From positions 2,372,798 through 2,436,797 of the forward strand of contig OZ220727.1 of NCBI GenBank assembly GCA_965116865.1: DNA of 64,000 nucleotides, read 5' to 3'. The stretch comes from Acidimicrobiales bacterium (GTDB taxonomy: Bacteria > Actinomycetota > Acidimicrobiia > Acidimicrobiales > Aldehydirespiratoraceae). Under the pieces are notes generated by a model. That model was not told the DNA's origin. It was given only the letters and a program-made list of their open reading frames with translations, and made no database searches. Shown here in pieces: positions 12,458 through 47,485 of the stretch; position 1 is the stretch's first letter, and every line of letters begins with the position of its first letter. The translations under genes and the position numbers were made by a program.

Positions 12458-12541
<84 letters not shown>

Positions 12542-12547
12542 CATTGA

Positions 12548-13128: not shown

Positions 13129-13208
13129 AGCGGTCAAAACCCATTCTGAAGCTATCCTGAGTGTTCTGATAGACCGGTTGGCACAACGGGCCTACCCCTG
13201 CTCCGAGG

Positions 13209-15952: not shown

Positions 15953-16171
15953 CGACGCACAAACTCTAAGTCCCGACACGCAAACCGAAAGCCGCGACGC
16001 TGACCGAGCGCGCCAGCCGCCACACCGACGCACAAACTCTAAGTCCCGACACGCAAACCGAAAGCCGCGACGCTGACCGAGCGCGCCGGCCGCCACACCG
16101 ACGCACAAACTCTAAGTCCCGACACGCAAACCGAAAGCCGCGACGCTGACCGAGCGCGCCAGCCGCCACAC
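15953..16171. repeat. 73-bp x 3 tandem repeat
   Basis: CGACGCACAAACTCTAAGTCCCGACACGCAAACCGAAAGCCGCGACGCTGACCGAGCGCGCCAGCCGCCACAC is repeated with a 73-bp period. Confidence 0.95.
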
Positions 16172-21384: not shown

Positions 21385-21950
21385 CGGTCCGCGACATACT
21401 CGCCATCGGCCATCCGGCGCTGCGGGTCCCGGCCGCGGCCGTGCCTCCGAGCGAGATCCGCAGCCGGCGGGTGCAGGACGTCGTCGACGACCTCATCGAC
21501 ACGATGCGCCACGCCGACGGAGCAGGGCTGGCCGCCAACCAGATCGGCGAGACAGCCCGGATCGTCGTCATCGAAGTGAACGACAACCCCCGCTACCCCT
21601 ACAAACCGCCGATCCCACTCACCGTCGCCATAAACCCCGAACTGGAGGCGCTCGACGACACGACCGTGATCATCAACGAAGGCTGCCTGTCGGTGCCGCT
21701 GCGAGGCGACGTGGCCCGCTCGGTGAACCTCCGGGTCCGCTACTTCGACCGTGACGGCGCCGAGCACCGCCTCGAGGCCCACGGCCTGGCCGCGGGCACC
21801 TGGCAGCACGAGTGCGACCACCTCGACGGCGTGCTGATCACCGACCGGGCCGACCCGGCGACCCTCGCCACTTGGGACGAGTTCGAGCGGCACCACCGAA
21901 ACGCATTCATCGAGCGCATCTCGAGGTTCGTGCAACTCGTCGGATCATGA
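21381..21950 (+). CDS. def: Peptide deformylase-family metallohydrolase embedded in the hut operon
   Basis: All three PDF motifs are present: GAGLAANQIG, EGCLSVP and QHECDHLDG. The protein is 189 aa, taking the MTVRD start. Confidence 0.85.
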   Translation: MTVRDILAIGHPALRVPAAAVPPSEIRSRRVQDVVDDLIDTMRHADGAGLAANQIGETARIVVIEVNDNPRYPYKPPIPLTVAINPELEALDDTTVIINEGCLSVPLRGDVARSVNLRVRYFDRDGAEHRLEAHGLAAGTWQHECDHLDGVLITDRADPATLATWDEFERHHRNAFIERISRFVQLVGS

Positions 21951-22450
21951 CGGCCCGGCACGTCGACATGTCCCACGGCCGACAATCTGTCAAGAAACCA
22001 CCGCACAGGCAGAAAAACCTGCAGAAGTTCAACAAATGCCCGTCCGGACGGCCTCCAACGACCGGGGCGGCACCAACGTTGACGTTCGGCGCCAGCGAAT
22101 TCAACAAATGCCCGTCCGGACGGCCTCCAACGACCGGGGCGGCACCAACGTTGACGTTCGGCGCCAGCGAATTCAACAAATGCCCGTCCGGACGGCCTCC
22201 AACGACCGGGGCGGCACCAACGTTGACGTTCGGCGCCAGCGAATTCAACAAATGCCCGTCCGGACGGCCTCCAACGACCGGGGCGGCACCAACGTTGACG
22301 TTCGGCGCCAGCGAATTCAACAAATGCCCGTCCGGACGGCCTCCAACGACCGGGGCGGCACCAACGTTGACGTTCGGCGCCAGCGAATTCAACAAATGCC
22401 TGTCCGGACGGCCTCCAACGACCCAGGACACCGGGGAGCCGCGAGCATGA
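21947..22450 (+). other. 167-codon bridge ORF through the array, with ATGA overlaps at both ends
   Basis: The ATG at 21947 overlaps the def TGA (21948-21950). The TGA at 22448-22450 overlaps the hutF ATG at 22447. Both junctions share ATGACGGCCCG (MTAR). Confidence 0.3.
22028..22422. repeat. 72-bp x ~5.5 tandem array between def and hutF
   Basis: Unit: TTCAACAAATGCCCGTCCGGACGGCCTCCAACGACCGGGGCGGCACCAACGTTGACGTTCGGCGCCAGCGAA. Each unit has a perfect 12-bp palindrome (CCGTCCGGACGG) plus AACGTT and GAATTC. Confidence 0.95.
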
Positions 22451-28273: not shown

Positions 28274-28360
28274 GGAGGGATGGCAGAGTGGACGATTGCG
28301 ACGGTCTTGAAAACCGTTGGGCCTTCACAGGTCCCGGGGGTTCGAATCCCCCTCCCTCCG
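28274..28360 (+). tRNA. tRNA-Ser (anticodon TGA), class II
   Basis: Acceptor GGAGGGA/TCCCTCC. Anticodon stem ACGGT/ACCGT with loop CTTGAAA. Long variable arm. T-arm GGGGG-TTCGAAT-CCCCC. Confidence 0.9.
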
Positions 28361-28404
28361 CTACACGATTGTTCCACACGTCCTAGTGCTGTGTCGTCGA
28401 AATG

Positions 28405-28931: not shown

Positions 28932-29089
28932 ATGGAGTACCTCCCTCGAGTAATCGACACCGAACTCGATGCGCTTGCCGAGGCGCCAGCGGTGTCAATC
29001 GAAGGGGCACGCGGTGTGGGGAAGACCGCTACCGCGATGCGGCGAGCGCGCACTGTTCATCGGCTCGACGATCCAGGCCAACTAGAGGT
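28932..29089 (+). pseudogene. AAA+ ATPase (DUF4143 family), 5' part, interrupted by the IS1182-type element
   Basis: MEYLPRVIDTELDALAEAPAVSIEGARGVGKTATAM...DDPGQLEV (Walker A). The reading frame resumes at 31163 after a repeat of CTAGAGGT. Confidence 0.7.
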
Positions 29090-31162
29090 CCGTCGCTGAA
29101 TTGATCGGGGCACCTGGAGCGCCTCCGAGCGAGGCTTCGGGCCTTCCGCGCTGCCCTAGGAGGCTGGTGTTTTTCTCGGGTGGGGTTGGGTGTGTGTGGT
29201 AGAGTTGCAGGGATGTTGTTCGGTCTCGTGGGGAGGTTCGTGTCGTGACGGTGGGTGTGGAGCCGTGTCGGGTGGATCTGTTCAAGGGTTCGCATTTCGT
29301 GGGGGAGCGGCTGGCGGCGGATTCGATTTTTTCGGTGTTGGCGCGTGAGGGGCGGCGGTTGTTTCCCGACGGGATGTTCGATGATCTCTTTAGTTCGCGG
29401 GGGCGGCGCAGTGTGCCGCCGCGGGTGGTTGCTGTGGTGATGGTGCTGCAGCGCTGGTTCGGGTTGTCTGAGTGTGAGGCGGTGGCCGCGTTCGAGTTCG
29501 ACGCGCGTTGGCGTTATGCGTGCGGGTGCCTCGACGTGGACGGCGGCGGGTTCGACCACACGGTGCTGGTGGGGATGCGGGCGCGGCTCGCGGCGTCGCA
29601 GCGGCCGCGGCGGATCTTCGAAGCGGTGCTGGGCGCGGCCCGCGAGGCGGGGGCGTTGTCTCGGCGGCGGGTGCTGGACTCGGTGCCGGTCTATGACGCG
29701 GTCGCGACCCAAGACACTGTCACGATGCTGCACCGCGCCATCGGCGCGGTGCTCGCAGCCGGCGGGGGCGACGCCGGCGCGGGCTTGCGTGGCGACTATC
29801 GGCGCGGCAGCAGGCCGGTGTGCGACTGGGACGACCCCGGCGAGCGCTCGGAGTTGGTGGACGCGCTGGGCGCGGACGCCGCGGCGGTGCTCGCCGGGTT
29901 GGAGGGCCGCGAGCTCAGCGGGGCTCTCAGCGAGGCTGCGGAGTTGTTGGCCGCGGTCTGCGGGCAGGACCTCTGCGAGGACCCCGACGGGCGGTTCATG
30001 ATCGCGCGGCGCGTCGCCGCGGACCGGGTCATCTCCACGGTGGACCCCGACGCCCGCCACGGCCACAAATCCACCGCACGGCGCTTCGACGGCTACAAGG
30101 GCCACGCCGCGGTGGACCCCGACTCCGAACTCGTCACCGACACCGCGGTCACCCCCGCTGACACCGCCGACGCCCAACCCGCCCCCCAACTCATACACGA
30201 CCTCCTCAACACCGCCGACACCAACACCAACACCGCCGACACCGACACCGCCGACACCGACACCGCCGACACCGACACCGCCGACACCGACACCGCCGAC
30301 ACCGACACCGCCGACACCGACGCCGACACCGCCGATACCGACACCGACACCGACACCGCCGACACCGCCGACACCGCCGACGCCGACACCGCCGACACCG
30401 CCGACACCGCCGACGGCGGCGGTGTGGTCGAGGAGTTCGAGGGCCGGCCGACGGTCTATGGCGACAGCGCGTACGGCAGCGGAGAGTTCCAAGGGCTGCT
30501 CGAGCGCAGCCGCATAAACTCGAGGTGCCGCACCCAGCCGGCGCGCGCTCCGGGGGGCCGCTTCGCCAAGGACCGCTTCGACGTCGATCTGCCCAACGGC
30601 ACAGTCACCTGCCCCGCGGGGGTCTGCGTCGCTGTCCGCTTCGGCCGCGACGGCTCGGGCGCGGCCCGCTTCGGGCCGGCGTGCGCGAGCTGCGAACTGC
30701 GCGACCGCTGCACCAGCGCAGCCGGCGGAAGGACTGTGCGCGTCGGACCCGACGAGGCCGTGCTCGCCGCGGCCCGCGAACGCCAACAAGACCCACAATG
30801 GCGCCGCGACTACCGCGCCGTGCGCCCCAAAGTCGAACGCAAGCTCGCGCACCTCGTGCACCGCAAAAACGGCGGCCGCCACGCCCGGGTGCGCGGCCGG
30901 CCCAAAGTCGACGCCGACTTCAACCTGCTCGCCGCAGCCGCCAACATCGCGCGCCTCGGCATGCTCGGACTGCGCTCCACACCAACAGGATGGACCCTCG
31001 ACTGACCCCGCCAAAGCCCCAACCCGCCCCCGACACGACCAACCAGCCGCCCCCGACACGACCAACCCTCGCCCAACCCGCCGACCCCGGCCACCACCCA
31101 CCACAACAGCCCACCGAACACCAATTTGGCACCAGCCACCTAGCAATTTGGACGACACACCA
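29090..31162 (+). mobile_element. IS1182/IS5-like insertion sequence (~2.07 kb)
   Basis: Flanked by the duplicated ACTAGAGG(T) at 29081-29089 and 31162-31170. Imperfect inverted repeats (IRs) are GGTCCGTCGCTGAATTG and CAATTTGGACGACACACC. Confidence 0.7.
29245..31005 (+). CDS. IS1182-family DDE transposase with an internal Asp/Thr/Ala tandem-repeat insert
   Basis: DUF772-type N-terminus (SVPPRVVAVVMVLQRWFGLSECEAV), then GYKGHAAVDPDSELV, VYGDSAYGSGEF and KVDADFNLLAAAANIARLG. The repeat lies at 30205-30415 (DTADTDTAD...). Confidence 0.85.
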   Translation: MTVGVEPCRVDLFKGSHFVGERLAADSIFSVLAREGRRLFPDGMFDDLFSSRGRRSVPPRVVAVVMVLQRWFGLSECEAVAAFEFDARWRYACGCLDVDGGGFDHTVLVGMRARLAASQRPRRIFEAVLGAAREAGALSRRRVLDSVPVYDAVATQDTVTMLHRAIGAVLAAGGGDAGAGLRGDYRRGSRPVCDWDDPGERSELVDALGADAAAVLAGLEGRELSGALSEAAELLAAVCGQDLCEDPDGRFMIARRVAADRVISTVDPDARHGHKSTARRFDGYKGHAAVDPDSELVTDTAVTPADTADAQPAPQLIHDLLNTADTNTNTADTDTADTDTADTDTADTDTADTDTADTDADTADTDTDTDTADTADTADADTADTADTADGGGVVEEFEGRPTVYGDSAYGSGEFQGLLERSRINSRCRTQPARAPGGRFAKDRFDVDLPNGTVTCPAGVCVAVRFGRDGSGAARFGPACASCELRDRCTSAAGGRTVRVGPDEAVLAAARERQQDPQWRRDYRAVRPKVERKLAHLVHRKNGGRHARVRGRPKVDADFNLLAAAANIARLGMLGLRSTPTGWTLD

Positions 31163-32272
31163 CTAGAGGTGATCGGGAGTGATCCGCGCCTGGTGACCGA
31201 CGGCGAGCCGCCGGTGCTGATCGACGAGTGGCAGCGGCTGCCTGCCTCATGGGATCTGGTGAGACGAGCGGTGGACGCCGACCCCCAGCCGGGCCGCTTC
31301 CTGCTCACCGGGTCGGCGACGCCAACTGAGACACCGGCCCATACAGGAGCAGGTCGCATCATCAGCATGCGGATGAGGCCCCTGTCGCTCGCTGAGCGCG
31401 GGCTTGCTGCTCCCACCGTCAGCCTCAGCGATCTGCTCACGGGCGACCGCCAACGACTCGACGGCGCGGCAGGAGTCGGTGTGGAGCAATACGCCGACGA
31501 GATCATCCGATCAGGCTTCCCCGGGATCAGGCCACACCCCGATCGGATCCGGCGCGGCCTGCTCGACGGCTATGTCGACCAGATCCTGCGCCACGATGTC
31601 TACCAGTTCGGCCACACCTTCAGAGACGAGGGGTCGTTGCGCAGATGGATCACCGCCTACGCGGCCGCGGTGTCGACTGCGACCCCGTTCGAGAAGATCC
31701 GCGACGCCGCAGCAGCAGGCGAAAGTGACAGGCCGGAGCGCACGACCACGATCCCATACCGATCAGCTCTCGAGGGTCTGCGGCTGATCGAAGAGGTACC
31801 AGCGTGGCTTCCGACCCTCAACCGGCTGCGCAGGGTGGCGTCGGTACCCGTGCATCAACTCACAGACCCAGCGCTAGCGGCTCGACTGCTCGGCGTCGGC
31901 ACCGACGCGCTGATCGCCGGAACTGAACGATGGGAAGGCGACGGGACGCTGCTCGGCGCGTTGTTCGAGTCGCTGATGACCCTCTCGGTGCGGGTGTACG
32001 CACAGGCCTGCGAGGCACGGGTGCACCACTTGCGAACCCAGGGCGGCGAACGCGAGGTCGATCTCATCGTCGAGCGCGCCGACGGCGCCATCGTGGCGCT
32101 GGAGGTGAAGCTCAAGTCGGTCATCAAAGACAGAGACGTCCGTCACCTGCAATGGCTGCGCAACCAGATCGGCTCCCGGATGCTCGACGCCGCGGTGTTG
32201 TCGACCGGCCAACAGGCCTACCGCAGAGCCGACGGTGTCGGAGTCATCCCCGCTGCGCTGCTCGGCCCCTGA
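31148..32272 (+). pseudogene. AAA+ ATPase (DUF4143 family), 3' part
   Basis: PLEVIGSDPRLVTDGEPPVLIDEWQRLP...REVDLIVERADGAIVALEVK. It continues the frame broken at 29089. Confidence 0.7.
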
Positions 32273-35187: not shown

Positions 35188-35279
35188 GGAGACGTGGCCG
35201 AGTCCGGTTGAAGGCGCTTCCCTGCTAAGGAAGTAACGATGCAAGTCGTTCGTGGGTTCGAATCCCACCGTCTCCGCCA
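35188..35279 (+). tRNA. tRNA-Ser (anticodon GCT), class II, with encoded CCA
   Basis: Acceptor GGAGACG/CGTCTCC. Anticodon stem CTTCC/GGAAG with loop CTGCTAA. T-arm GTGGG-TTCGAAT-CCCAC. Confidence 0.9.
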
Positions 35280-35324: not shown

Positions 35325-36287
35325 TTAGAGGCCGCGCGGATTGACCATCCGCGGGTCGTCTGGTTGTCCCGACTGGAATATCGGGTGTCCTGTCAACGAG
35401 ACGACCGTGGAGGTCAGACACATCATGCGCGCGTTGGAGTCGGAAGTGGTGGATCCGGTGTGGGCGGCGATCGAGCCGCTTGTGCCGGTGCCTGTGGACA
35501 ACCATCCCACCGGCGGGCACCGGCGCCGGATACCGGACAAGATCGTGTTCTGGAGGATCTTGATCCGGTTGGTGACGGGCTGCTCGTGGGTCACCGCGGA
35601 GAGGCTGTTGGGCGGGCGCGTGTCTGACACGACTATGCGCGCCCGCCGCGACGAGTGGGTCGAGGCCGGAGTCTTTGAAGGCCTGGAGCCTGAGGCGCTG
35701 CGCGCCCATGACCGCATCGTGGGCCTCGACTTGTCCGAGGTGTCGGTGGACGGGTCGATCCACAAGGCGCCCTGCGGCGGCGAAGGCACCGCCAAAAGCC
35801 CTGTTGAGCGGGCCAAACTGGGCTGGAAATGGTCCATATTGGCCGAACGGGCCGGGATGCCGGTCGCGGCGGTCGCCGACGGCGCCAACCGACACGACAC
35901 CATCTTGTTCGAACCCACACTGCGAGCCGCCCCCGAAGGGCTGCTAGCCGACGTGGAGACCCAGCACCTCGACCGCGGATACGACAACGCGCCGGCGCGC
36001 GCGGTGTGCGCCGCGATGGGCATCGACGACGTCGTGTGAGCGAAGAAGCGCCCCCGCCACGCCAAGCGCCGCAAACCCAACACGGCTCCCCTCGGGCTGC
36101 GCTGGAGCGTCGAGCGCACCAACTCGTGGCTGTCGAACTTCGGACAGACACGCCGCAACACAGACCGCCGCCCCCAGCACCGACGAGCCCAACTCTCCCT
36201 CGCCATAACCCTCATTATCACAGCCAAACTCATCGACCACCGCGACCGATGGAACCCCCACCCATGATCAATCCGCGCTCGCTCTTA
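35325..36287 (+). mobile_element. IS5-family (IS427/IS1031-like) insertion sequence immediately 3' of tRNA-Ser
   Basis: Terminal IRs are AGAGGCCGCGCGGATTGACCAT and ATGATCAATCCGCGCTCGCTCT. TTAG-like flanks on both sides. Confidence 0.65.
35425..36267 (+). pseudogene. IS5-family transposase with a single in-frame TGA at 36037
   Basis: MRALESEVVDPVWAAIEPLVP...GANRHDTILFEP...HLDRGYD, then a stop, then LRWSVERTNSWLSNFGQ in the same frame. Confidence 0.65.
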
Positions 36288-36783
36288 GTGTTGCCACCAG
36301 TCGTCGAAGGTGCGTCGCGATCTCTGTTGCGCGGCGACGCCGCGGGGGAACCACGCCAGTTCGCGGTCGCCGCCAGCGGCCGCGGAACGGTAGTCGACAC
36401 CGTCGAGGACCGCTGTGCCGATGGGCTGGCAGGTGCTGTGGGGTATGAGGCTGCCGTCGGCGGTGTGGGGGTAGGTGTGGGGCAGCCCGAGAGATGCGAG
36501 TCCGTCATCGGAGTTTGCGTCGGCCGCCTGCCCGGCGGGCACGGTGACCTCTACAAGCACGGGCGCGGTCGCAGGGTCGAGATCCTCTGGACCGTAGGCC
36601 AGCCCCGCGAAGCGGCGCGACGTTGGCCCGGGCAGTGGCTTCGTCTCGGTTCAGGTACAGGCACTGCATCTGTGGCGGGTTCCAGCGCTGGCCCCGCGAG
36701 GCGGCATAGGACGGGTCCAGCGGATCGTCCCATTCGGGTTCGACGACGCGGCAGTAGATGCCGGCGATCGCGACAGTCAGCAC
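36285..36783 (-). pseudogene. RES-domain toxin, frameshifted near 36600
   Basis: The N-terminal frame reads YCRVVEPEWDDPLDPSYAASRGQRWNPPQMQCLYL. The C-terminal frame reads AYGPEDLDPATAPVLVEVTVP...IGTAVLDGVDYRSAAAGGDRELAWF. Confidence 0.65.
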
Positions 36784-36786
36784 GGC

Positions 36787-37164
36787 TCAGGCGACACGCG
36801 TGTAGTCGAAGCTGTCCTTGACGGATCGCAGCAGCCACTCATGGTCATCGTCGGCGATTACCTCGAGCATGCTGCGCCCGTCGTAGCCGTCGGCGCGGCG
36901 ACGCACGACCACCGCTGCGGTCCCGTCTCGAAGCCGGTAGCTGAGGATGTCCGCGATCTCTGCCAGAGCGCCGATCTTGGCGATGCGATCAGCAGGCGGC
37001 CCTGCCAGCAGCCACTTCTCGACGGCCTGGCGCTTCACGCCCATCAGCTCCGCGATGTCGCTGCTCGACAAGTCCAGCGTCGTCATAGCCCGACGCAGCG
37101 CAGAAGCGCTGCGAGCCGCGCTCAACGACGCTCTCCGAGAGACCGTCGCGCCTTCATCCATCAT
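36787..37164 (-). CDS. Xre-like antitoxin of the MbcA/ParS (DUF2384) type
   Basis: HTH DIAELMGVKRQAVEKWLL followed by the DUF2384-like tail GRSMLEVIADDDHEWLLRSVKDSF. Lies directly upstream of the RES gene. Confidence 0.75.
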   Translation of the reverse strand: MMDEGATVSRRASLSAARSASALRRAMTTLDLSSSDIAELMGVKRQAVEKWLLAGPPADRIAKIGALAEIADILSYRLRDGTAAVVVRRRADGYDGRSMLEVIADDDHEWLLRSVKDSFDYTRVA

Positions 37165-37210: not shown

Positions 37211-38305
37211 GTGGCTGAGCGGGCTGGCAGCGGTGCGTTGAAGCGGCGAAGAACCCGCAACCAGACGCGCCCTACGACGCCAACAGCCACGGGCCGGCCG
37301 GTTCGCGGGGAACCTCGCCATGTCGCAGGGTTCGATGTCGCTGGCGCCCTCCAGCGAGGGCTGCCTGTTGATGAACTCGCGAAGCTCAAGGCCCAGAGCC
37401 GCTATCTAGGTTCTTATGCATGGGAGCTGGGCCTGGACCCCCATGATCTGTGCCCGTTGTGTGGGGAGATGTTCGGCGGGTGGTGCCTTCACGCTGATCA
37501 TGTGATGCCTGAGCACTTCGGGGCGCTATATCGCATCGACGGTGCGTGGCGGGCGGTGCGCGACGCCGAAGATGTCCCAGCGGGTGCCGGGGTCTTCCAC
37601 GCGGTGCAGTGCGCCGCCTACGCGCACGCGCCGTGCAACCTTCGAAAGGGCCGCACCGCCGACGTGTCTGCTTGGCGATTGACGGGGATGGCGCCGCTGA
37701 TAGTGGCGGAATCGGATGCGGGAGAGGCGGTGGCGGTCCCCGGTCCGGTGATCGTGGCCGCAGAGCCGCGAACACCCGAGCAGCGAGCCGCTGAGGCTCT
37801 GGGCCTGCAGCACGCCAAGACCGCCAGCGGCGGCGTGCGCGGCCGGCGTCTCAGCATCGAGGAACGCAACCGCGAGGCCCAGCTGGCCCAGCAGGCCCTC
37901 GCCGCGCACCAACAACGCCGTGTTAGCCAGCAGCGCGCATTGCCCGCACCCAGCACGACATGGGCCTTCTCACAACAACGTCGCAAGCTGGCGCGAGCTC
38001 GACGTCGAGGCGACCGGAGCATCTTGTGCAACTTCACCGGACAGGACCGCCCGAAGTTGTGTGTCGGCAACGGGCCCCGGGAGTGCTGGTGCGCCAGAGT
38101 GCGCCCCGAGGCAGCAGACCGCCTCATCGCCGCGTTCGGAGCTGAGAGGGCGCTCGAGATACTCGTCGAGGACCCGCCCAGGCCAATGCAGGCCCTAGCC
38201 GGCATCCGCGACAATGCCGCCAAGGTCGCGCCTGGCGGAGTGTTCCGGCCGTCGGAGTTCTGCAACAGCGCAAGGGAGCCTGCAGAAGCTGATCGAGGCA
38301 GATGA
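37211..38305 (+). CDS. HNH-motif nuclease domain protein with an uncharacterised C-terminal half
   Basis: CPLCGEMFGGWCLHADHVMPEH...HAPCNLRKG. The start codon is uncertain. Confidence 0.55.
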   Translation: MAERAGSGALKRRRTRNQTRPTTPTATGRPVRGEPRHVAGFDVAGALQRGLPVDELAKLKAQSRYLGSYAWELGLDPHDLCPLCGEMFGGWCLHADHVMPEHFGALYRIDGAWRAVRDAEDVPAGAGVFHAVQCAAYAHAPCNLRKGRTADVSAWRLTGMAPLIVAESDAGEAVAVPGPVIVAAEPRTPEQRAAEALGLQHAKTASGGVRGRRLSIEERNREAQLAQQALAAHQQRRVSQQRALPAPSTTWAFSQQRRKLARARRRGDRSILCNFTGQDRPKLCVGNGPRECWCARVRPEAADRLIAAFGAERALEILVEDPPRPMQALAGIRDNAAKVAPGGVFRPSEFCNSAREPAEADRGR

Positions 38306-38464
38306 GTGATCAGGATTCGTGGGCCGCTAGGAGACCTTGCTCCCCTGGGTCGCGGGCTAGCGGGCTGTTTCCCCGCGATGGGAGTCGCTGCTTGCGACCC
38401 GTTTCGGGTGCCGCCGGTAGGTTGCACCGGGCGCATGCCATGGGTGCACCTCGTGGCTGCGCTG

Positions 38465-41400
38465 TCACCTCGGTACGGCTCCGCCTCTTGGCACGGTGTC
38501 GGACAGCACTACGTCGGCGAGTTGATCGATCGTGCAGAAGGGAACTTCCGCGCTCTGTACGTACGCGGCTGGCTCGGGGGTAACGGTCACCATCAGGCCG
38601 ATGACGGTCCATGATCGTGTAGGCCTGTCAGCACCAAGGCGAGCCGCGATGTCGGCGGCGTTTCGGTGGACATCGTTCACCTTGTGGATGAGCTTGTCGA
38701 CGAAGGCTCCTTCATGCATGAACTTGTTGATGTTGCGGCGCAGAGACCGCGACGAGAACGGCATCGCAAGGTCCTTGGCCTCGATGACCCAGATTCGGGA
38801 GGTCTGAGGGTCGACGCAGAGCACGTCGATCTCGCCGTACAGTTCGTCGATGCCGTATTGGTGCGCCTTCAACGGCTCGATGTTGCTGCGGGTGATCAGC
38901 CTGGATTCTGAGAGCACCCTCACGCATTCGTCCTCGAACGCTTTGGCGACCCCTTGGCGGTATCGGTTCAGAGCCTTACAGACCTCGCTCGGCAGTACCC
39001 GATCTGGCCAAGGCAGTCGCCCCTCAACCAGATAGTTGCGCAAGATTCTCGCCGAGAACTGCGAGGTCCACGGCAAGATATAGATCCCGGTCGCGCCTTC
39101 TATGAACGGTCTTGTGATCACTCTTGCCGCTCGATGTTCGAGTTCCCAATGTTCGATCATGCCGTTGCGGGCATCAGCTAGCAGGCCGGCCCTGTGCAGG
39201 GTCAACCACTCCAACGCCCTCGCATGCTCGTCTCGTGACGCAAGAGGAAATGATGGCGCCAGTCTGTCGAGGAACGCTTCGGCGCTCACGTGAGCGATGT
39301 AGGTCGAAGTGGAGACCTCCCACTCGCACGCCATGTTGAGCACGCCTCGCAGCGCATCAAGGCCGAATCCCAGTGTTGCGTTGAGTTCTCGGTCGACATC
39401 GGCCAAGTCAGGCACCTGGTCGATCAGCGGCAGCGGCTGGATGTCTTCTGGTTCAGGCAGATGCGCCTCTGAGGATCCCATAGGCACCGCTTCGGGAAGC
39501 ATCACCGCTTTGCGCGCTTCCTGGTATGCATGAATGTCGACCTCAGGGAACCTGGCATCTAGGTCGATGCGGTAGTGGTCACTGATCGTCATCGTTGGAT
39601 CGGCCAGATGCAAGTAGATCGACTCGCTGCGCAGGCTCGACTCGACACATAGCTGGGCGACGCTGAGGAGTTCGATCCATCCGAGCCTGTCGGGCGACGA
39701 TTCGCCTTGCGGGGTTTGGGCGAGTGCCTCTTCGACGATGAGCGTGACGCACTTTGTCAGGATCGTCAGCCGGTCTTCTTCTGAACGCTCCTCGTGCGCG
39801 TCGCTGTCGAAGGTGCCCCGTCGCCATGCGATCCGATGCTGGTTGACCAGCCGGTGGTGGTTGGCGCGTTCCAGCTGAGACAACGCGTACTCGATCATCT
39901 CCTCATGTCGGTAACGCGCCAGCAGGGTGTGGAGCTCCTCGAGCAGCCACGGATATATGACGTCGGACTCGATGCGAACCGTCTCGCGGCGACCGTAGCT
40001 CCCCGGCTCGACCCACCCAGCCAGGTATCTGCTCAAGCGGCGCCGGACATCGTTCAATTGCGAGTCATGCGGTTCGATGGCAGGAGGCAGCTCAAAGGCG
40101 TCCTGCACGTATGGCATGCCGTCCACTCGAACAGCCGGCGGAGCGGTGTCCCAGTCCTGTTTGAAGCGCGTCGTAGCGTCAGATTGGGCCAGAGCATCAG
40201 CGACCATGTGACCGATGGCTGATTCCACCTCGACTGAGTCCTGCAGCAGCGCTGGCAGCAGGAGTTCGCTGCATGAGAGCCGAATGACAGAATCAGGGAA
40301 CAGTTCGAGGACCAAGGCGTCATCTGTGTCGCTGGTGTGCCCAATTTCGAAGATCAGGTGTGTAAGGCCCGCAGCGTGTCCCATGGCCAGAAAGGAACGC
40401 TTCGTGTCCTTGAGCTTCGCCGACAGGATCTTCGATAATGCCCACAACGGATCGGTCTCGCGAAATGGCCCGCGCTGGTCACACATCGACACAGCCACCG
40501 GAAGCTCCCAGGCCAGAATTCGATACATCCGTGATTCCGCGGCGTCGCCCACGACGGACTCTTCGGGGTAGTGCCACACGATCGGCAAGTCGGACAGTCC
40601 GGGGAATCCCAGCCGCAGCAGCGCCCGTTCCAGCACCGAGGCGTCGGCTGCGTCGGTCCATTCGGATCTTGTGATGCGAGGATCGACCGATATCAGACCT
40701 AGAGCGACCGCAGCGGTAGGGAAGGACCTGCCACGACCAGTCCAGATCATCCACAGAGGAGCCAGGTTCAATGACCATATGGCGCTGGAGCTCCTGAGAT
40801 GCGAATAGTCTCGCAAGAAGAACCAAAGGTCCGGCGGGCGAGAAGACGTGGACCTGGCGATGTTTTTGAGGTCCGTCAGCGTTGCTCTCGGGTACTTGCT
40901 GATAGGGCCGAGCCCAGCCACCCCCGGCGCGGCAGCGACCTGCAACATGACAATGTCAGCGTCGTCGTCGACTCGATCCAGACCGTCAGCCGCCGTCACT
41001 GCGGCACCGGGCACAACAGTGTCGAGACTGGCGTCGCTGGAATCGAGCGCCCTGTCGAGACCTTCCTGGGTCAACGCTGCGGCGACATCTGTCACGAGAA
41101 GCTGAGTAGGCGAGTACTGCGTCACCGAGTGAACTTTGCACGTCGGGGATACCGCTACGGGCCCGGTGATCGGATGAGCCGAACCCGCGAGCATGTGGCC
41201 GACATGGTCACTCACAAGTGACCGCCAACGCGTCTCGGCGTCGCTGCTGAGCTGCGCTGCGAGTTCGGCGAGACGCACACCGCAAGCGACCAGCGCCTCC
41301 AACAGCAGCCCTCCCGGTACTGGCGCCCACTCCTCGGCGCCCGGCCGCACGCAGATCGTGTCGGCGAACACAGACACCGGATCATCAAGCCCGCAAGCCA

Positions 41401-42061
41401 GTTCGCCGGGAGACACCGAATGCGCCAGCAACGCCTCGCGTACCCTATCTGGCGCCTCGCACGCATCGACCTGGGCGAAGATGCCCTCGATTCGGCTGGC
41501 GGCCTCGAATTCGTCGTTGGTGATGTAGGCGGGCGAGCCCGGTTCAGGCATCTCGTCGTCGGGCCAAGAAGCCGACAGCACACCGGCAATGTGGTTCATC
41601 CGTCGCAAGGCCAACTCGATCAGGTCACCGAGTCCGTAGCCCTGGTGATCCACGAGCACCGGATCTATCGCATCCGCCAACAGGCTGAGTTCGTCGATCG
41701 CCGCGATAGGGCGGTCCAAGAACCCGGGCAGCAGCCGGTGCAGCTCTCCGTTCCATCGCACCACAGCACCCGCTCGAACATCGCACGGCTGGTCTTCCTC
41801 CAGCGTCTGCAGTTGCGGCTCCGACTCGTGAGCTGCAGCCACCAACACCGGAAGCAGCGGAGGATCGGCTGGCCGGCCCTCAACGCTGGCGCGGTTGGCC
41901 ACGGCATGGAACACCACCGCGAGGCTCGGGATGCGGTGACTCGCCGTCGGCGATGAACACGCAGCCTCAAGCAACGCCAACAGCGAGGCCCGTGACACGC
42001 CGGTCATCGCACGCTCAACAGGTTTCAGACGCCGCCTTCGTCGACTCCTTCTCCAATTCAT
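38465..42061 (-). CDS. Large (1198 aa) uncharacterised protein with a C-terminal PD-(D/E)xK nuclease-like motif
   Basis: The start is taken at MNWRR (ATG 42061); an alternative is MTGVS at 42007. The C-terminus has FEDECV...GEIDVLCVDPQTSRIWVIEAKDL. No Walker A was seen. GC is lower than the flanks by eye. Confidence 0.7.
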   Translation of the reverse strand: MNWRRSRRRRRLKPVERAMTGVSRASLLALLEAACSSPTASHRIPSLAVVFHAVANRASVEGRPADPPLLPVLVAAAHESEPQLQTLEEDQPCDVRAGAVVRWNGELHRLLPGFLDRPIAAIDELSLLADAIDPVLVDHQGYGLGDLIELALRRMNHIAGVLSASWPDDEMPEPGSPAYITNDEFEAASRIEGIFAQVDACEAPDRVREALLAHSVSPGELACGLDDPVSVFADTICVRPGAEEWAPVPGGLLLEALVACGVRLAELAAQLSSDAETRWRSLVSDHVGHMLAGSAHPITGPVAVSPTCKVHSVTQYSPTQLLVTDVAAALTQEGLDRALDSSDASLDTVVPGAAVTAADGLDRVDDDADIVMLQVAAAPGVAGLGPISKYPRATLTDLKNIARSTSSRPPDLWFFLRDYSHLRSSSAIWSLNLAPLWMIWTGRGRSFPTAAVALGLISVDPRITRSEWTDAADASVLERALLRLGFPGLSDLPIVWHYPEESVVGDAAESRMYRILAWELPVAVSMCDQRGPFRETDPLWALSKILSAKLKDTKRSFLAMGHAAGLTHLIFEIGHTSDTDDALVLELFPDSVIRLSCSELLLPALLQDSVEVESAIGHMVADALAQSDATTRFKQDWDTAPPAVRVDGMPYVQDAFELPPAIEPHDSQLNDVRRRLSRYLAGWVEPGSYGRRETVRIESDVIYPWLLEELHTLLARYRHEEMIEYALSQLERANHHRLVNQHRIAWRRGTFDSDAHEERSEEDRLTILTKCVTLIVEEALAQTPQGESSPDRLGWIELLSVAQLCVESSLRSESIYLHLADPTMTISDHYRIDLDARFPEVDIHAYQEARKAVMLPEAVPMGSSEAHLPEPEDIQPLPLIDQVPDLADVDRELNATLGFGLDALRGVLNMACEWEVSTSTYIAHVSAEAFLDRLAPSFPLASRDEHARALEWLTLHRAGLLADARNGMIEHWELEHRAARVITRPFIEGATGIYILPWTSQFSARILRNYLVEGRLPWPDRVLPSEVCKALNRYRQGVAKAFEDECVRVLSESRLITRSNIEPLKAHQYGIDELYGEIDVLCVDPQTSRIWVIEAKDLAMPFSSRSLRRNINKFMHEGAFVDKLIHKVNDVHRNAADIAARLGADRPTRSWTVIGLMVTVTPEPAAYVQSAEVPFCTIDQLADVVLSDTVPRGGAVPR

Positions 42062-42337
42062 GTCCTCAACCCTCGAACCAAACGAAGCCCCCCGAAGCCA
42101 ACCCACAGCGTAGACAGCCCCTGTGACCCCACAGGCAGCGCCCATACTTGATCGCCGCGCAGGTGGGCGTTCACAACCTATGACCCGGATCGGCCCACCC
42201 CCGTGGAGGAGTGCGCCGCTTCCGGACGGCGCGTGCACCGACCACCGCCCGTCGATCCTCAAGCCGTGCCGTACCTGCAAGCACCCACGGGGCCTCATCC
42301 CCGCCGACGGCCGCCATATGGATAACGTCACCCGGTC

Positions 42338-42799
42338 GTGAACCCCGTCGACGTCTACACCGACGGCGCGTGCCGCAAGAACCCTGGCCCCGGCGGATGG
42401 GCGTGGCTGGTTCCCGGCGGCCGCTGGGCTACCGGATGCAAACAGCACACCACCAACCAACAGATGGAACTCGCCGCGGTCCTCGAAGCGGTCAGGACCC
42501 ATCCCGATGACCCGCTGCGCATCCATTCCGACTCGCAGTACGTCGTTCACGGCATCAACCACGGCCGGTACAAGCGCTGGCTCAAACAGAACTGGCACAA
42601 CAGCAAACGCAAGCCCGTAGCGAACCGCGACCTGTGGGAACCGCTGATCGAGCTGTGGCTGCCCCGCCGCAGCGAGGTGGCCTTCGTGTGGATACCGGGC
42701 CACGCCGGGAACCGTCACAACGAACTCGCCGACAAGCTGGCCTGCCGGGCAGCCGACACCCAACAGCCCGCCACCGGGATGAACAGCACAACCGCCTAG
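42338..42799 (+). CDS. rnhA: Ribonuclease HI
   Basis: VYTDGAC, TNQQMELAAV, IHSDSQYV and HNELADKLA supply the DEDD residues. The stop codon lies at the IS630 junction. Confidence 0.85.
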   Translation: MNPVDVYTDGACRKNPGPGGWAWLVPGGRWATGCKQHTTNQQMELAAVLEAVRTHPDDPLRIHSDSQYVVHGINHGRYKRWLKQNWHNSKRKPVANRDLWEPLIELWLPRRSEVAFVWIPGHAGNRHNELADKLACRAADTQQPATGMNSTTA

Positions 42800-43955
42800 T
42801 GCATGCTCGCGGTAGTCGTATGGCTGTGTTGGGGTCGGGTTATGACTGTTCCTAGGACTTTGAAGGTGTGCGAGGCTGATCGGGCGGTGCTGGAGGCGCG
42901 GGTGGCTGCGTCGACGACGCCGCGGCGGGATTGGCAGCGTGCCAAGGTGGTGCTGATGGCCGCTGAGGGGCTGTCGTCTCCGGTGATCGGCAAGGCGGTG
43001 GGCCTGAACCGCAACCAGGTGGACGTGTGGCGGCGCCGCTACGGCGAGGCGGGCCTGGGCGGGCTCGCGGACCGGCCGCGCTCGGGCCGGCCGCGTGTGT
43101 ATGGGCCCGCGGAGAGGCTGGCTTTGGTCAAGACGATCACGACGCGGCCCCCCGAGGCGGGCCAGCTCGGCGGGCGGCGGCTCAAGGCCCGCATGTCGAT
43201 GCCCGAGGTCGGCCGGATCATGCGCGAGGACCTCGCCATCGCGATCTCGGACTCGCAGGTGTGGCGGATCTGCACCTCGATGGGCCTCAAGCCGCAGCAG
43301 GCGCGCTCGTGGACGGCCTCCCATGACGCAGACTTCGACGCCGAGGCCGCCGACGTCTGCGGGCTGTGCCTCGACCCGCGGGACAACTGGGCGGTGTTCA
43401 GCGTCGACGAGAAGACCGCCATACAGGCCAAGAGCCGCGTCGGCGCGGCCCGCCCGGCGCGGCCCGCCGACGGCGCCGCCGCCGGGCGGGTCGCCCGACA
43501 GGAGTTCGAGTACCGCCGCCACGGCACCAAGGCACTGTTCGCCGCGTTCGAGTGCGCCACCGGCGAAGTCGTCGCCGCGCCCACAGACTCGGTCCGCTCG
43601 GACAACTTCGTGGCGTTCCTCGCCGAGCTGGACTCCATGGTGCCCGCCCACCTCGAGCTGCGCTGCATCGTCGACAACCCCGCCACCCACTGCACCGCCG
43701 CCGTCGAGGAGTTCCTCGACGGCCACCACCGCGTGTTCCTGCACCGCACCCCCACCCACGCATCCTGGCTCAACCAGATCGAGATGTGGTTCTCCATCCT
43801 CACCCGACAACTCCCCGACACAGCCGAGTTCGCCCACACCAGCGACCTCGCCGGAGCCATCCTCGACCACATCGACGACTACAACAACCGGGCCAAACCC
43901 TTCAAATGGACCTACCACCCAAACCAACAGCCACAGAACTTACGCGCGTGACCAC
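42799..43955 (+). mobile_element. IS630-family element, type A, copy 1
   Basis: Bounded by TA at 42797-42798 and 43956-43957. The ends are GTGCATGCTCGCGGTA and TACGCGCGTGACCAC. It is near-identical to 45121 onward. Confidence 0.8.
42803..43951 (+). CDS. IS630-family DDE transposase (type A)
   Basis: HTH region followed by SVDEKTAIQA, CIVDNPATH and ASWLNQIEMWF. The probable start is MTVPRTL at 42842. Confidence 0.85.
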   Translation: MLAVVVWLCWGRVMTVPRTLKVCEADRAVLEARVAASTTPRRDWQRAKVVLMAAEGLSSPVIGKAVGLNRNQVDVWRRRYGEAGLGGLADRPRSGRPRVYGPAERLALVKTITTRPPEAGQLGGRRLKARMSMPEVGRIMREDLAIAISDSQVWRICTSMGLKPQQARSWTASHDADFDAEAADVCGLCLDPRDNWAVFSVDEKTAIQAKSRVGAARPARPADGAAAGRVARQEFEYRRHGTKALFAAFECATGEVVAAPTDSVRSDNFVAFLAELDSMVPAHLELRCIVDNPATHCTAAVEEFLDGHHRVFLHRTPTHASWLNQIEMWFSILTRQLPDTAEFAHTSDLAGAILDHIDDYNNRAKPFKWTYHPNQQPQNLRA

Positions 43956-45055
43956 TAGTGTCCCGAGTCAGGAATTCGTTGGAGATATGTTGCCGGGTTG
44001 TGGAGTATCTCGTCGGCGCTCTTGTGCCATGTGAACGGGCGAGGGTTGTGGTTCCGGTGGTCGATCCGGTGCTGGATGGAGCCGGTGAGTTCTTTGGTGC
44101 TGGTGTGGGTGCCGCGGCGGATCCATTTGGTGGTGGGCTCGGCGAACCAGCGCTCGACGAGGTTCGTCCACGAGCTGTGGGTGGGGGTGAGGTGGAAGCT
44201 GAAGCGGGGGTGGCGCAGCAGCCGGCGCTGTATGGCGGGGGTCTTGTGGGTGGAGGAGTTGTCCAGCACGACATGTGCCTTGGGGCCCTCGGGGGCTTCG
44301 CTGTCGATGAGGTCCAGGAACTTGCGGAACTCGATGGCGCGGCGGCGCGCGGTCATCGAGGAGATGGCTTTGCCCGAGGCGGCGTCGAGCGCCGCGTGGA
44401 GGTTGGTGGTGCCGAAGCGGCGGTAGTCGTGGGTTCGGCGCTGGGGCACACCCGGCATCAAGGCAAGCACCGGCGCGGCGCGGTCGAGAGCCTGGATCCG
44501 GGTCTTGTCGTCCGCGCAGAGCACCACCGCTGCCTCCGGCGGGTTCAAGCACAGCCCGGCGACGTCGCGCGCCTTGTCGATGAACTGGGGGTCCGGCGAC
44601 ACCTTGAACTCCTCCACGCCATGGGGCCTGAGCCCGAAGGCCCGCCACATCCTCGAGACCGTCGACTGCGACAGCGCCACCTGCGCGGCCATCGAGCGCG
44701 TCGACCAGTGCGTCGCGCCCTCAGGAGCCGACTCCAGCGTCTTGACGATCACCTCCTGCACCTTGTCGTCGCTCACCGTGCGCGGCGCGCCCGGACGCGG
44801 CTCGTCGCAGAGCCCGCCCAACCCGCGCCCCGCGAACCGGCGCCGCCACTTCGACACCGTCGCCTCGCTGCACCCCAGCGACACCGCGATCGACTCGTTC
44901 GTCTCCCCCGCGGCCGCGCCCAGCACTATCCGGCACCGCAGCGCCAGAGCCTGCGACGACTTCGGGCGCCGCGCCCACCGCTCCAGCGTCTCGCGCTGCT
45001 CATCGGCGAGCACCACCTCCACCCCACGACGGCCCCTAGCCACCACTGCCTCCAA
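43955..45055 (-). CDS. IS630-family DDE transposase (type B)
   Basis: 366 aa; CADDKTRIQALDR, VVLDNSSTHK, and SSWTNLVERWF. Confidence 0.85.
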   Translation of the reverse strand: MEAVVARGRRGVEVVLADEQRETLERWARRPKSSQALALRCRIVLGAAAGETNESIAVSLGCSEATVSKWRRRFAGRGLGGLCDEPRPGAPRTVSDDKVQEVIVKTLESAPEGATHWSTRSMAAQVALSQSTVSRMWRAFGLRPHGVEEFKVSPDPQFIDKARDVAGLCLNPPEAAVVLCADDKTRIQALDRAAPVLALMPGVPQRRTHDYRRFGTTNLHAALDAASGKAISSMTARRRAIEFRKFLDLIDSEAPEGPKAHVVLDNSSTHKTPAIQRRLLRHPRFSFHLTPTHSSWTNLVERWFAEPTTKWIRRGTHTSTKELTGSIQHRIDHRNHNPRPFTWHKSADEILHNPATYLQRIPDSGH

Positions 45056-45118
45056 TCACCGCCCGCATCCACACCAACCATACCACAACCAACCCCAATA
45101 ACTAAAGACTCAGGACAC
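43958..45118 (-). mobile_element. IS630-family element, type B, copy 1
   Basis: IRs are GTGTCCCGAGTC and GACTCAGGACAC. It shares single TA dinucleotides with both flanking type-A copies. Confidence 0.8.
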
Positions 45119-46092
45119 TAGTGCATGCTCGCGGTAGTCATATGGCTGTGTTAGGGTCGGGTTATGACTGTTCCTAGGACTTTGAAGGTGTGCGAGGCTG
45201 ATCGGGCGGTGCTGGAGGCGCGGGTGGCTGCGTCGACGACGCCGCGGCGGGATTGGCAGCGTGCCAAGGTGGTGCTGATGGCCGCTGAGGGGCTGTCGTC
45301 TCCGGTGATCGGCAAGGCGGTGGGCCTGAACCGCAACCAGGTGGACGTGTGGCGGCGCCGCTACGGCGAGGCGGGCCTGGGCGGGCTCGCGGACCGGCCG
45401 CGCTCGGGCCGGCCGCGTGTGTATGGGCCCGCGGAGAGGCTGGCTTTGGTCAAGACGATCACGACGCGGCCCCCCGAGGCGGGCCAGCTCGGCGGGCGGC
45501 GGCTCAAGGCCCGCATGTCGATGCCCGAGGTCGGCCGGATCATGCGCGAGGACCTCGCCATCGCGATCTCGGACTCGCAGGTGTGGCGGATCTGCACCTC
45601 GATGGGCCTCAAGCCGCAGCAGGCGCGCTCGTGGACGGCCTCCCATGACGCAGACTTCGACGCCGAGGCCGCCGACGTCTGCGGGCTGTGCCTCGACCCG
45701 CGGGACAACTGGGCGGTGTTCAGCGTCGACGAGAAGACCGCCATACAGGCCAAGAGCCGCGTCGGCGCGACCCGCCCGGCGCGGCCCGCCGACGGCGCCG
45801 CCGCCGGGCGGGTCGCCCGACAGGAGTTCGAGTACCGCCGCCACGGCACCAAGGCACTGTTCGCCGCGTTCGAGTGCGCCACCGGCGAAGTCGTCGCCGC
45901 GCCCACAGACTCGGTCCGCTCGGACAACTTCGTGGCGTTCCTCGCCGAGCTGGACTCCATGGTGCCCGCCCACCTCGAGCTGCGCTGCATCGTCGACAAC
46001 CTCGCCACCCACTGCACCGCCGCCGTCGAGGAGTTCCTCGACGGCCACCACCGCGTGTTCCTGCACCGCACCCCCACCCACGCATCCTGGCT

Positions 46093-47485
46093 GGCAGCGT
46101 CCCACCGGGTGGTGGAAATTGAGGTAGCTGGGAGGGTCCACCTGTAGGGGGGCCATCGGCGTGATCCTCGGTGAGAAGACATCACCGACTCATCGAGGAG
46201 GACACACCGATGACCCTGTCTGATACTGCCACAGCGCAGCTGTTGGAGACCTTCCGCGCCTCAGGTGGCGCGGAGCTGATCCGTGAGGCGGTGGAGCTGG
46301 TGCTCCAGGAGCTGATCGAGGCCGAGGCGACCGCGGCGATCGGAGCGGGCCGCTATGAGCGCAGCGAGACCCGCACGACGGCGCGCAACGGGCACCGCGG
46401 CCGCCTGTTGGCCACCCAGGCGGGGGATCTGGAGCTGAAGATCCCCAAGCTGCGCAAGGGCAGCTTCATGCCGTCGGTGCTCGAGCCGCGCCGGCGCATC
46501 GACCGGGCGCTGTATGCGGTGATCATGGAGGCCTACGTCGCTGGGGTGTCCACCCGCTCGGTGGACGACCTGGTGGCCGCGCTGGGAGCGGAGTCGGGCA
46601 TCTCCAAGTCGGAGGTGTCGCGGATCTGTGCGGGCCTCGACGAGGGCGTGGAGGCCTTCCGCAGCCGGCGCCTGGACCACATCGAGTTCCCCTACGTCTA
46701 CTTGGACGCCACCTACCTCAATGTGCGCAACAGCGTCGCCCAGCCAGCGTCAATGGCGACGGTGGTGGCCACCGGGATCACCTCAGACGGCAATCGTGAG
46801 GTCCTGGGCTGTGACGTCGGCGACAGCGAGAGCGAAGCCTTCTGGCAGCAGTTCATGGGGTCTTTGCGCGACCGGGGCCTCACCGGGGTGCGCCTGGTGA
46901 TCTCCGACGCTCACCGCGGGCTCGCCGCAGCCGCCGACCGCTGGTTCCAGGGCGCCGCCAGACAGCGTTGCCGGGTGCATTTCATCCGGAACCTGCTGGC
47001 GGTGGTGCCCCGCAGCCACCAGCACATGGCCGCCGCCTTGTTCCGCACGATCTTCGCTCAACCCGACACCGACGCCGTCACCGCCGCCTGGGACCAAGTC
47101 ACCACCCAACTCGCCGCCAGCTTCCCCAAAGCGGGCCCGCTGATGGACACAGCCAGAGCCGAGGTGCTGGCCTTCGCCGCGTTCCCCAAGGCCCACCGGC
47201 AAAAGATCCGGTCCACCAACCCCCTCGAACGCATCAACAAGGAGATCAAGAGACGATCACGCGTCGTGGGGATCTTCCCCAACGAGGCCTCCGCCATCCG
47301 ATTGGTCGGAGCCATCCTCGCCGACCTCCACGACGAGTGGCAGGCCAGCGACCGGCGCTACCTCTCAGAGGACTCCATGAGCCTGCTCTACCCCGAGCGC
47401 GATAGTCTCGCCACAGCCGAACTCACAGCCGGCAACTAACCACCGAGGCTCAACCCCAAAGTCCACCACGCCACGGGACGCCCCC
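46093..47485 (+). mobile_element. IS256-family insertion sequence
   Basis: IRs are GGCAGCGTCCCACCGGGTGGTGGAAATTGAGG and the reverse complement of GGGGGCGTCCCGTGGCGTGGTGGACTTTGGGG. The flanking duplication is TCCTGGCT / TCCTGGGCT. Confidence 0.8.
46171..47439 (+). CDS. IS256-family (mutator-type) transposase
   Basis: RNGHRGRLLATQAGDLELKIPKLRKGSFMPSVLE, YLDATYLNVR, and ISDAHRGL. The likely start is MTLSD at 46210. Confidence 0.9.
   Translation: MRRHHRLIEEDTPMTLSDTATAQLLETFRASGGAELIREAVELVLQELIEAEATAAIGAGRYERSETRTTARNGHRGRLLATQAGDLELKIPKLRKGSFMPSVLEPRRRIDRALYAVIMEAYVAGVSTRSVDDLVAALGAESGISKSEVSRICAGLDEGVEAFRSRRLDHIEFPYVYLDATYLNVRNSVAQPASMATVVATGITSDGNREVLGCDVGDSESEAFWQQFMGSLRDRGLTGVRLVISDAHRGLAAAADRWFQGAARQRCRVHFIRNLLAVVPRSHQHMAAALFRTIFAQPDTDAVTAAWDQVTTQLAASFPKAGPLMDTARAEVLAFAAFPKAHRQKIRSTNPLERINKEIKRRSRVVGIFPNEASAIRLVGAILADLHDEWQASDRRYLSEDSMSLLYPERDSLATAELTAGN

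Follow-up and report, generated by a model that had tools for sequence, protein, structure and literature searches.

A probable full-length, highly divergent Upx protein encoded in a genomic island of an Acidimicrobiales bacterium

The reference member of the anti-phage Upx proteins is that of Salmonella enterica (SeUpx, 1272 aa), whose cryo-electron-microscopy structure is available as 9WUF (PMC13099982), and two divergent homologues, HpUpx and PbUpx, have likewise been tested. One gene suffices for defence in heterologous hosts (PMC13099982, PMC13601566), and Evans et al. list 2093 Upx homologues (PMC13601566). In the present work we analyzed a stretch of 64,000 nucleotides from contig OZ220727.1 of an Acidimicrobiales bacterium—hereafter, the window—in which the gene at positions 38465-42061, on the minus strand, encodes a protein of 1198 aa. 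A sequence-only reading of that gene had found the product unrecognizable, except for a nuclease motif near the C-terminus, and had joined it to a protein with an HNH motif and to an RNase HI in a candidate nucleic-acid-targeting module. We propose, with a probability of about 80%, that this product is a highly divergent (~14% identity), full-length Upx; that is, a stand-alone phage-triggered nuclease.

As to the mode of action of Upx, Zhou et al. (2026) described a Mg-dependent 3'-5' exonuclease of single-stranded DNA (ssDNA) that is activated by the ejection protein gp16 and that contains a second, atypical nuclease site in its N-terminal domain (NTD), for which site the residues D122, D127, R129, E147, and D173 of SeUpx have been proposed. 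Evans et al. (2026; PMC13601566), for their part, identified the ATPase domain of the large terminase as the sole activator of three Upx homologues, with identities down to 16%, presented AlphaFold 3 models in which the unfolded ATPase is threaded through the Upx NTD by beta-augmentation, and reported an outcome that is toxic and resembles abortive infection. The replacement E1176A or E1176A/K1178A in SeUpx abolished both the defence and the terminase-induced toxicity (PMC13099982, PMC13601566).

The large gene and its relationship to Upx

Translation of 38465-42061 on the minus strand gave an uninterrupted reading frame of 1198 aa, in agreement with the position and length deduced from the sequence alone. 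Public gene calls begin at M19, resulting in a product of 1180 aa; nevertheless, the basic, arginine-rich extension at the N-terminus is retained in homologues of only 33-39% identity, which conservation makes the longer start plausible. The region is, as had also been noted, richer in AT than the backbone: the GC content is 0.60-0.64 over 38-41 kb of the window versus ~0.67-0.72 in the surroundings, and the GC content at third codon positions (GC3) is 0.73 in this gene versus 0.85-0.90 in the backbone genes. A motif search revealed no Walker A motif in the protein, and a Pfam scan returned no domain, and hence neither an NTPase nor a methyltransferase domain, which outcome upholds the earlier statement that no such motif was discernible. 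The features of the gene are the following, with the NTD boundary having been carried over from the domain limits of SeUpx (PMC13099982) by means of the alignments described below:

38465..42061, minus strand: Upx-like gene (1198 aa plus stop codon), a putative single-polypeptide sensor plus PD-(D/E)xK nuclease, according to translation, profiles, and Foldseek
40622..42061, minus strand: NTD, residues ~1-480 (approximate), counterpart of the Upx NTD and putative phage-protein sensor
40127..40621, minus strand: middle domain (MD), residues ~481-645 (approximate), aligned to the SeUpx MD, with residue 534 corresponding to SeUpx ~577
38468..40126, minus strand: C-terminal domain (CTD), residues ~646-1198, of which 674-1170 align with SeUpx 744-1253, the profile and hhalign being in agreement
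38531..38989, minus strand: PD-(D/E)xK nuclease core, residues 1025-1177, according to conserved columns, predicted topology, and the SeUpx alignment
38933-38935 (E1043), 38825-38827 (D1079), 38780-38782 (E1094), and 38774-38776 (K1096), minus strand: codons of the catalytic core

When scanned as a single sequence against Pfam, PHROGs, PADLOC, NCBIfam, and the PDB, the protein gave only three sub-threshold matches in the nuclease core, with nothing from either Pfam or the PDB. Among these, we discarded the match to the PADLOC model HEC-01B (34 residues, E=0.01), a similarity generic to nuclease cores, and took the match to the NCBIfam Upx model (E=0.03) solely as a lead and not as a result. 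A transitive link by way of NCBIfam failed, since the intermediate family members scored just 13-17 bits on the Upx equivalog. The family to which the protein belongs proved to be large: a word-indexed search gave 28 relatives, and an exhaustive profile search retrieved 1701 representative clusters at E<=1e-3, the full-length ones being nearly all of ~1100-1320 aa and matching end to end.

The homology to Upx became evident through profiles. With a profile of 15 sequences (A1), the best match in the PDB was 9wuf_A, at E=0.0016 over 497 colinear positions; with one of 49 sequences having 21-81% identity (A2), hmmsearch gave the same chain at E=1.7e-29, with positions 512-1160 matching 553-1232 over ~650 positions. 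The comparison of A2 with an alignment of classical Upx proteins by hhalign yielded a probability of 99.5% (E=2.7e-22), and the comparison with a deeper Upx alignment obtained from metagenome loci a probability of 99.7% (E=1.2e-25) over 1058 columns, in which latter alignment residues 38-1171 of the window protein were colinear with Upx 8-1197. Therefore, the label of unrecognized protein holds insofar as the standard models miss it, but not in a broader sense, because profiles and structure comparison identify a remote full-length homologue of Upx.

The predicted structure led to the same family. A first AlphaFold model, for which 15 close sequences were used, was of low quality (pLDDT 69, pTM 0.48; 9WUF by Foldseek at E=9e-22, TM 0.30) and gave way to an AlphaFold2 model based on the 49 sequences of A2, with a pLDDT of 90.7 and a pTM of 0.88, in which the NTD region was also modelled with high confidence. 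A Foldseek search of the PDB with this second model—the check by AlphaFold and Foldseek that had been advised for the protein—gave a single significant match, that being again 9WUF along its full length (E=1.1e-28, 1334 columns, 14% identity), with which structure the model superposed at a TMq of 0.62, a TMt of 0.61, and a root-mean-square deviation of 8.6 Å. The MD and CTD together (481-1198) comprise ~60% of the residues and could by themselves attain a TMq of 0.62 only through a nearly perfect superposition, one incompatible with a deviation of 8.6 Å, from which we infer that, in the model, the NTD superposes in part as well. The matches to McrC, NucC, NucS/EndoMS, and SfsA formed a weak, non-significant tail (E>0.1 for McrC, NucC, and NucS), and a Foldseek search of viral structures (BFVD) furnished no significant match.

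The PD-(D/E)xK core that had been discerned in the motifs FEDECV (1042-1047), GEIDVLCVD (1076-1084), and IWVIEAKD (1090-1097) was corroborated. Its predicted topology is the canonical alpha-beta-beta-beta-alpha-beta (helix 1025-1051; strands 1056-1061, 1078-1084, and 1089-1095; helix 1104-1115; strand 1152-1159), and across the 49 homologues E1077, D1079, and K1096 are invariant, with E1043 and E1094 being nearly so. Furthermore, D1079 in beta-2 and E1094-x-K1096 in beta-3 align with D1161 and E1176-x-K1178 of SeUpx, and the spacing from D to E is 15 residues in both proteins; SeUpx needs these three residues for its defence, and the motifs of the window protein are not fortuitous.

Several results weigh against this assignment and must be considered together. 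On the NCBIfam Upx model (NF042954, "anti-phage protein Upx", 1240 positions) the protein scored 11.5 bits (E=0.03), with a cut-off of 1900, through the alignment of residues 1040-1100 to positions 1094-1154. The PADLOC check that had also been advised gave, apart from the weak HEC-01B similarity, no match to the Upx model PDLC02221, on which the classical Upx proteins P0181 and P0188 attain 2195 and 646 bits, respectively; and the precomputed Pfam family PF28173, which classical Upx proteins carry, is not on record for the clade of the window protein. Moreover, when the first ~480 residues alone were compared by hhalign with 3 or 16 classical Upx proteins, the similarity was not significant (E=0.75 and E=0.5), a result from which the sensor of this clade may recognize a different trigger; the two published mechanisms themselves disagree on what the trigger is. 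Finally, the residues D127-x-R129 of the SeUpx NTD appear not to be conserved: in the low-confidence alignment of the NTDs, D127 falls opposite L107 and R129 opposite R109, a position occupied by R or Q across the family.

These objections have to be set against the following considerations. The curated Upx models are narrow, so that a protein failing them is not an equivalog of SeUpx, which circumstance does not place it outside the wider family; some relatives of the window protein, moreover, weakly match both the NCBIfam and the PADLOC Upx models in the nuclease core. In the NTD, the same low-confidence alignment contains a local pattern, ED..DP/V...V...G..R.L.G, that is common to the window protein and to Upx. 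The D127-x-R129 residues are likewise unconserved in the classical homologue P0188, and no part of the window protein is less conserved than its NTD, a variability that, judged from the sequences, fits better with the role of a sensor than with that of a conserved second nuclease site.

In its overall design, the window protein resembles Upx in being one polypeptide of ~1200 aa without an NTPase, in which a large N-terminal and middle region precedes a C-terminal PD-(D/E)xK nuclease with the D...ExK triad in the same relative position; in the fold along the full length, with profile homology over the MD and CTD; in being a stand-alone gene within defence islands; and in an identity, ~14%, that is in the range of that between validated Upx homologues (16%, PMC13601566). 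The protein differs from Upx in falling below the three curated models, in an NTD that by itself has no significant sequence similarity and apparently lacks D127-x-R129, in a host within the Acidimicrobiia (Actinomycetota), in a divergent RNase HI gene that accompanies it in three close genomes, and in having, at the loci examined, no association with Avs1 or with a second Upx in tandem. Fold, architecture, catalytic residues, and gene organization place the protein in the Upx family as broadly understood by Evans et al. From that relationship we infer a nuclease activity, a trigger, and an anti-phage phenotype, the most likely role by analogy being that of a nuclease set in action by a phage protein. 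Avs2, a terminase-sensing STAND NTPase, would be a functional analogue, as a large sensor of a phage protein that fires a nuclease effector (PMC13601566), but the window protein contains neither a STAND NTPase nor a Walker A motif and has no Avs match in PADLOC or Foldseek. With type II or orphan restriction endonucleases and with McrC-like nucleases, the protein has in common the fold and the catalytic motif of its final ~150 residues, whereas no cognate methyltransferase or McrB partner adjoins it in the window and the further ~1000 residues match only Upx.

Shorter relatives were observed in Micromonospora and Actinoplanes (L027, 6001-6939; L029, 6001-6660), where open reading frames (ORFs) of ~540 aa align with the family profile solely in its C-terminal ~525 positions; these could be short stand-alone forms or proteins with a different N-terminal part.

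Homologous loci and defence context

We compared ~25 loci that encode full-length relatives (29-90% identical), together with a small number of partial loci (30 loci in the tblastn searches with the HNH-like protein and the RNase HI), taken from complete chromosomes of metagenome-assembled genomes, from genomes of isolates (Amycolatopsis, Glycomyces, Lentzea), and from metagenome contigs. All the ORFs of at least 50 aa lying at no more than 2.5 kb from the Upx-like gene were clustered all-against-all, and no family was present in more than three of the 25 full-length loci, the RNase HI being the sole real one.

The surroundings of the Upx-like gene are nonetheless of a definite kind. Directly upstream, we found BREX genes (PglX, PglZ, BrxL) with SLFN_AlbA_2 at one locus (L003) and a complete type II CBASS at another (L006), while the neighbours elsewhere were an integrase, DACNG/DACNH genes, and AbiE (L005), a gene pair composed of a PglX-like methyltransferase and DUF499 (L007), or AAA_5, GmrSD, and SNF2 genes (L002). 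The other genome loci contained Gabija, type I restriction-modification, several methyltransferases, mad2, CapP, SLFN_AlbA_2, a TrwC relaxase, and transposases. The Upx-like gene is thus solitary, in defence islands or in mobile elements, and neighbours for defence or mobility that change from locus to locus, with no fixed partner among them, are typical of a defence gene without companions, which is how Upx has been described. The proposal that the 1198-aa protein is a nuclease-bearing candidate for defence is supported by this adjacency of its homologues to BREX, CBASS, Gabija, AbiE, restriction-modification, and GmrSD.

No tandem second Upx, no large Upx-like neighbour, and no association with Avs1 was found in the loci examined. 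In the Acidimicrobiia metagenome-assembled genome jk18x11bins.4, Upx-like matches occur on three different contigs (L010, L022, L028), and the match in L028 is solely a C-terminal fragment at the end of the contig; this instance recalls, albeit on separate contigs, the association with a "second Upx" noted by Evans et al.

Neighbouring genes and alternative explanations

The genes and the intergenic region that adjoin the Upx-like gene are:

37211..38305, plus strand: 364-aa HNH-motif protein with 23 homologues and a CxxC/HxDH/CN motif, not part of the system
42062..42337, no strand assigned: divergent intergenic region of 276 bp between the Upx-like gene and rnhA, conserved in L001 and L034 within the 4.3-kb cassette
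42338..42799, plus strand: RNase HI, 153 aa (Pfam RNase_H E=1e-35; NCBIfam rnhA 129.6 bits; PHROG 531 E=4.7e-45)

The 364-aa ORF is a real gene, as evidenced by its 23 homologues (46-91% identity) and by a codon-position GC pattern that fits the frame. The family conserves the motif CxxC...HxDH...C...H..CN, within an invariant block, CPLCG...LHADHVMPEH...C..Y.HAPCN.(R/K)KG, that is zinc-ribbon-HNH-like, but neither Pfam nor the PDB profile search nor PHROGs supported the HNH assignment, the PHROG matches being at only E=0.2-0.35. Its homologues are located in other islands—in L031 (7001-8167) at 0.5 kb from a tmRNA gene and beside a ParE/Phd pair, and in L032 (7001-8167) near McrBC—which placement indicates that the gene is unrelated to the Upx-like one. 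It is a separate island gene; in the window it lies ~1.9 kb from a tRNA-Ser, and islands that integrate at tRNA or tmRNA sites may carry it as a functional gene or be marked by it. Consequently, of the convergent HNH protein earlier postulated as a partner, there remain a conserved gene and its motif, but not the partnership.

The RNase HI was correctly recognized as to position, strand, and identity, though its NCBIfam rnhA score is under the cut-off of 160 and the linkage to the Upx-like gene is shared by only three close genomes. There, a segment of 4.3 kb with 85-91% nucleotide identity begins at the stop codon of rnhA (42799-42802) and continues to ~20-35 bp beyond the stop codon of the Upx-like gene (38443-38498), corresponding to 38443-42802 in the window, 9188-13510 in L001, and 1572-5895 in L034, and no homology among the three was found beyond either end. 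A segment with such sharp boundaries implies that, in this sub-lineage, rnhA and the Upx-like gene move together. The intergenic region presumably holds both promoters, and the relatives without rnhA retain just its first 20-80 bp. Beyond the window, rnhA adjoins the Upx-like gene only in L001/L008, which belong to one genome (81% identical), and in L034 (90%); it is not beside the gene in a relative of 87% identity (L033), nor in L005, L006, L007, or L009 (70-76%), nor at any of the ~20 loci of more distant relatives. Short sequences flank the Upx-like gene in L033 and L001 and are repeated within L001 (e.g., 9107-9186, 16882-17037, and 21632-22103), which arrangement suggests a shuffling mediated by insertion sequences (ISs) or miniature inverted-repeat transposable elements. 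The RNase HI is probably a facultative neighbour that is not required for the function of the Upx-like protein.

With these data in hand, the alternatives can be weighed. The idea of a novel three-gene defence module, composed of the HNH-like protein, the 1198-aa protein, and the RNase HI, could draw on the facts that the three genes physically adjoin in the window, within the AT-richer island, and that all three proteins have motifs related to nucleic acids. Nevertheless, the HNH-like gene was found by tblastn in none of the other Upx-like loci (30 loci, ~25 of them full-length), its homologues in the other islands occur without the Upx-like gene or rnhA, the shared cassette stops before reaching it, its convergent orientation is not one of co-transcription with the Upx-like gene, and no neighbour whatsoever is conserved among the 25 loci. 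The test of co-occurrence thus refutes the module, to which we give practically no credit. A narrower proposal, that in this sub-lineage the divergent RNase HI assists the Upx-like nuclease in its function—whether by removing RNA from R-loops or RNA-primed intermediates, thereby exposing ssDNA, or by limiting self-damage—has in its favour the cassette itself, shared among three genomes with unrelated flanks; the fact that the enzyme scores better on the phage family PHROG 531 than relative to the rnhA equivalog cut-off; and the finding that SeUpx, in vitro, cuts D-loop and R-loop substrates in their unpaired 3' ssDNA (PMC13099982). Three related genomes, however, represent very few independent events, the close as well as the distant relatives enumerated above lack rnhA beside the gene, the GC3 of the RNase HI gene (0.85) fits the backbone and not the Upx-like gene (0.73), and in heterologous hosts Upx needs no second gene, so that we regard the proposal as unlikely. 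Of a similarly low likelihood is its extension to a two-component variant of Upx in which a dedicated RNase HI of mobile-element type is combined with an NTD that senses a trigger other than the terminase; in that variant the RNase HI would either convert R-loops and RNA:DNA hybrids into the ssDNA substrate or protect the R-loops of the host.

A different explanation would dispense with immunity altogether, the protein then being a nuclease that serves a mobile element or DNA repair, similar to an orphan restriction endonuclease or a recombination enzyme. The PD-(D/E)xK fold is in fact common to the nucleases of repair and recombination, as the weak Foldseek tail with NucS/EndoMS, SfsA, McrC, and NucC reflects, and the gene stands among IS elements; but the sole significant match in both structure and sequence is to a defence protein, along its full length, the homologues repeatedly adjoin known defence systems and are not inside transposons, their distribution is patchy and island-like, and no viral structure matched significantly. 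As to restriction-modification in particular, no methyltransferase was present among the ORFs scanned at 35-47 kb of the window, and none is fused to the 1198-aa protein. We therefore deem a non-immune role very improbable, and retain a divergent Upx as the interpretation of the gene.

The island itself, foreign and rich in mobile elements, was as anticipated from the sequence, being bounded by a tRNA-Ser, a toxin-antitoxin remnant, and IS elements:

35188-35279: tRNA-Ser(gct)
35341-36039: IS4/5 fragment, bounding the island on the side opposite to the nested IS cluster
36505-37164, minus strand: RES toxin remnant plus Xre/HTH antitoxin-like gene
42803-43951 (plus strand), 43955-45055 (minus strand), and 45164-46147 (plus strand): IS630-family copies, within a nested IS cluster at 42803-47439
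46171-47439: IS256-family transposase, after the third IS630 copy

The RES remnant has 92 aa, with an E-value of 1.8e-4 that is below the Pfam threshold, and is apparently truncated, whereas the antitoxin-like gene encodes 125 aa; the two constitute a decayed RES-Xre toxin-antitoxin pair. The third IS630 copy stops early, at 327 aa versus 382 aa in the near-identical first copy. Elsewhere in the window, a second AT-rich island (13000-16000; GC 0.48-0.54 versus ~0.70) begins just past a tRNA-Leu (12458-12542) and contains, at 13209-15548 on the minus strand, a gene for a protein of 779 aa in which N6_Mtase is fused with the specificity domain Methylase_S, probably a separate element of the restriction-modification type. 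In addition, a tRNA-Ser(tga) (28274-28361) is followed by a DDE_Tnp_1_6/DUF772 transposase ORF (29245-31005, plus strand) and an AAA_14/DUF4143 ATPase (31148-32272, plus strand); the longer ORF on the strand opposite to the transposase (29029-31506) has no Pfam match and is probably a high-GC artefact.

Proposed mechanism and significance

For the Upx-like protein, we envisage a constitutive production as an auto-inhibited monomer, whose large N-terminal and middle region would detect a phage protein—either the ATPase domain of the large terminase or an ejection protein. That detection would free the C-terminal PD-(D/E)xK nuclease (D1079/E1094/K1096), which would then halt the infection, either by breaking down ssDNA or replication intermediates in the 3'-5' direction, or by degrading the cellular DNA in the manner of abortive infection. 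The protein would act without a partner, the HNH-like gene being unrelated and the RNase HI a sporadic passenger of one sub-lineage.

The new three-gene system that had been proposed does not exist, and the finding is, aside from the following points, an ordinary one. A giant gene that seemed an orphan can now be tested as one of a defence family for which a mechanism was established no earlier than 2026. Moreover, this gene represents a large clade—hundreds of clusters at 50% identity—in the Actinomycetota, including the Acidimicrobiia, that is invisible to the Upx models of PADLOC, NCBIfam, and Pfam, as a consequence of which the censuses of defence systems in these phyla under-count Upx, and the A2 alignment could be used to extend those models. 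Finally, the very divergent sensor half of these proteins provides a natural test of whether the sensing of the terminase by beta-augmentation holds across the Upx family.

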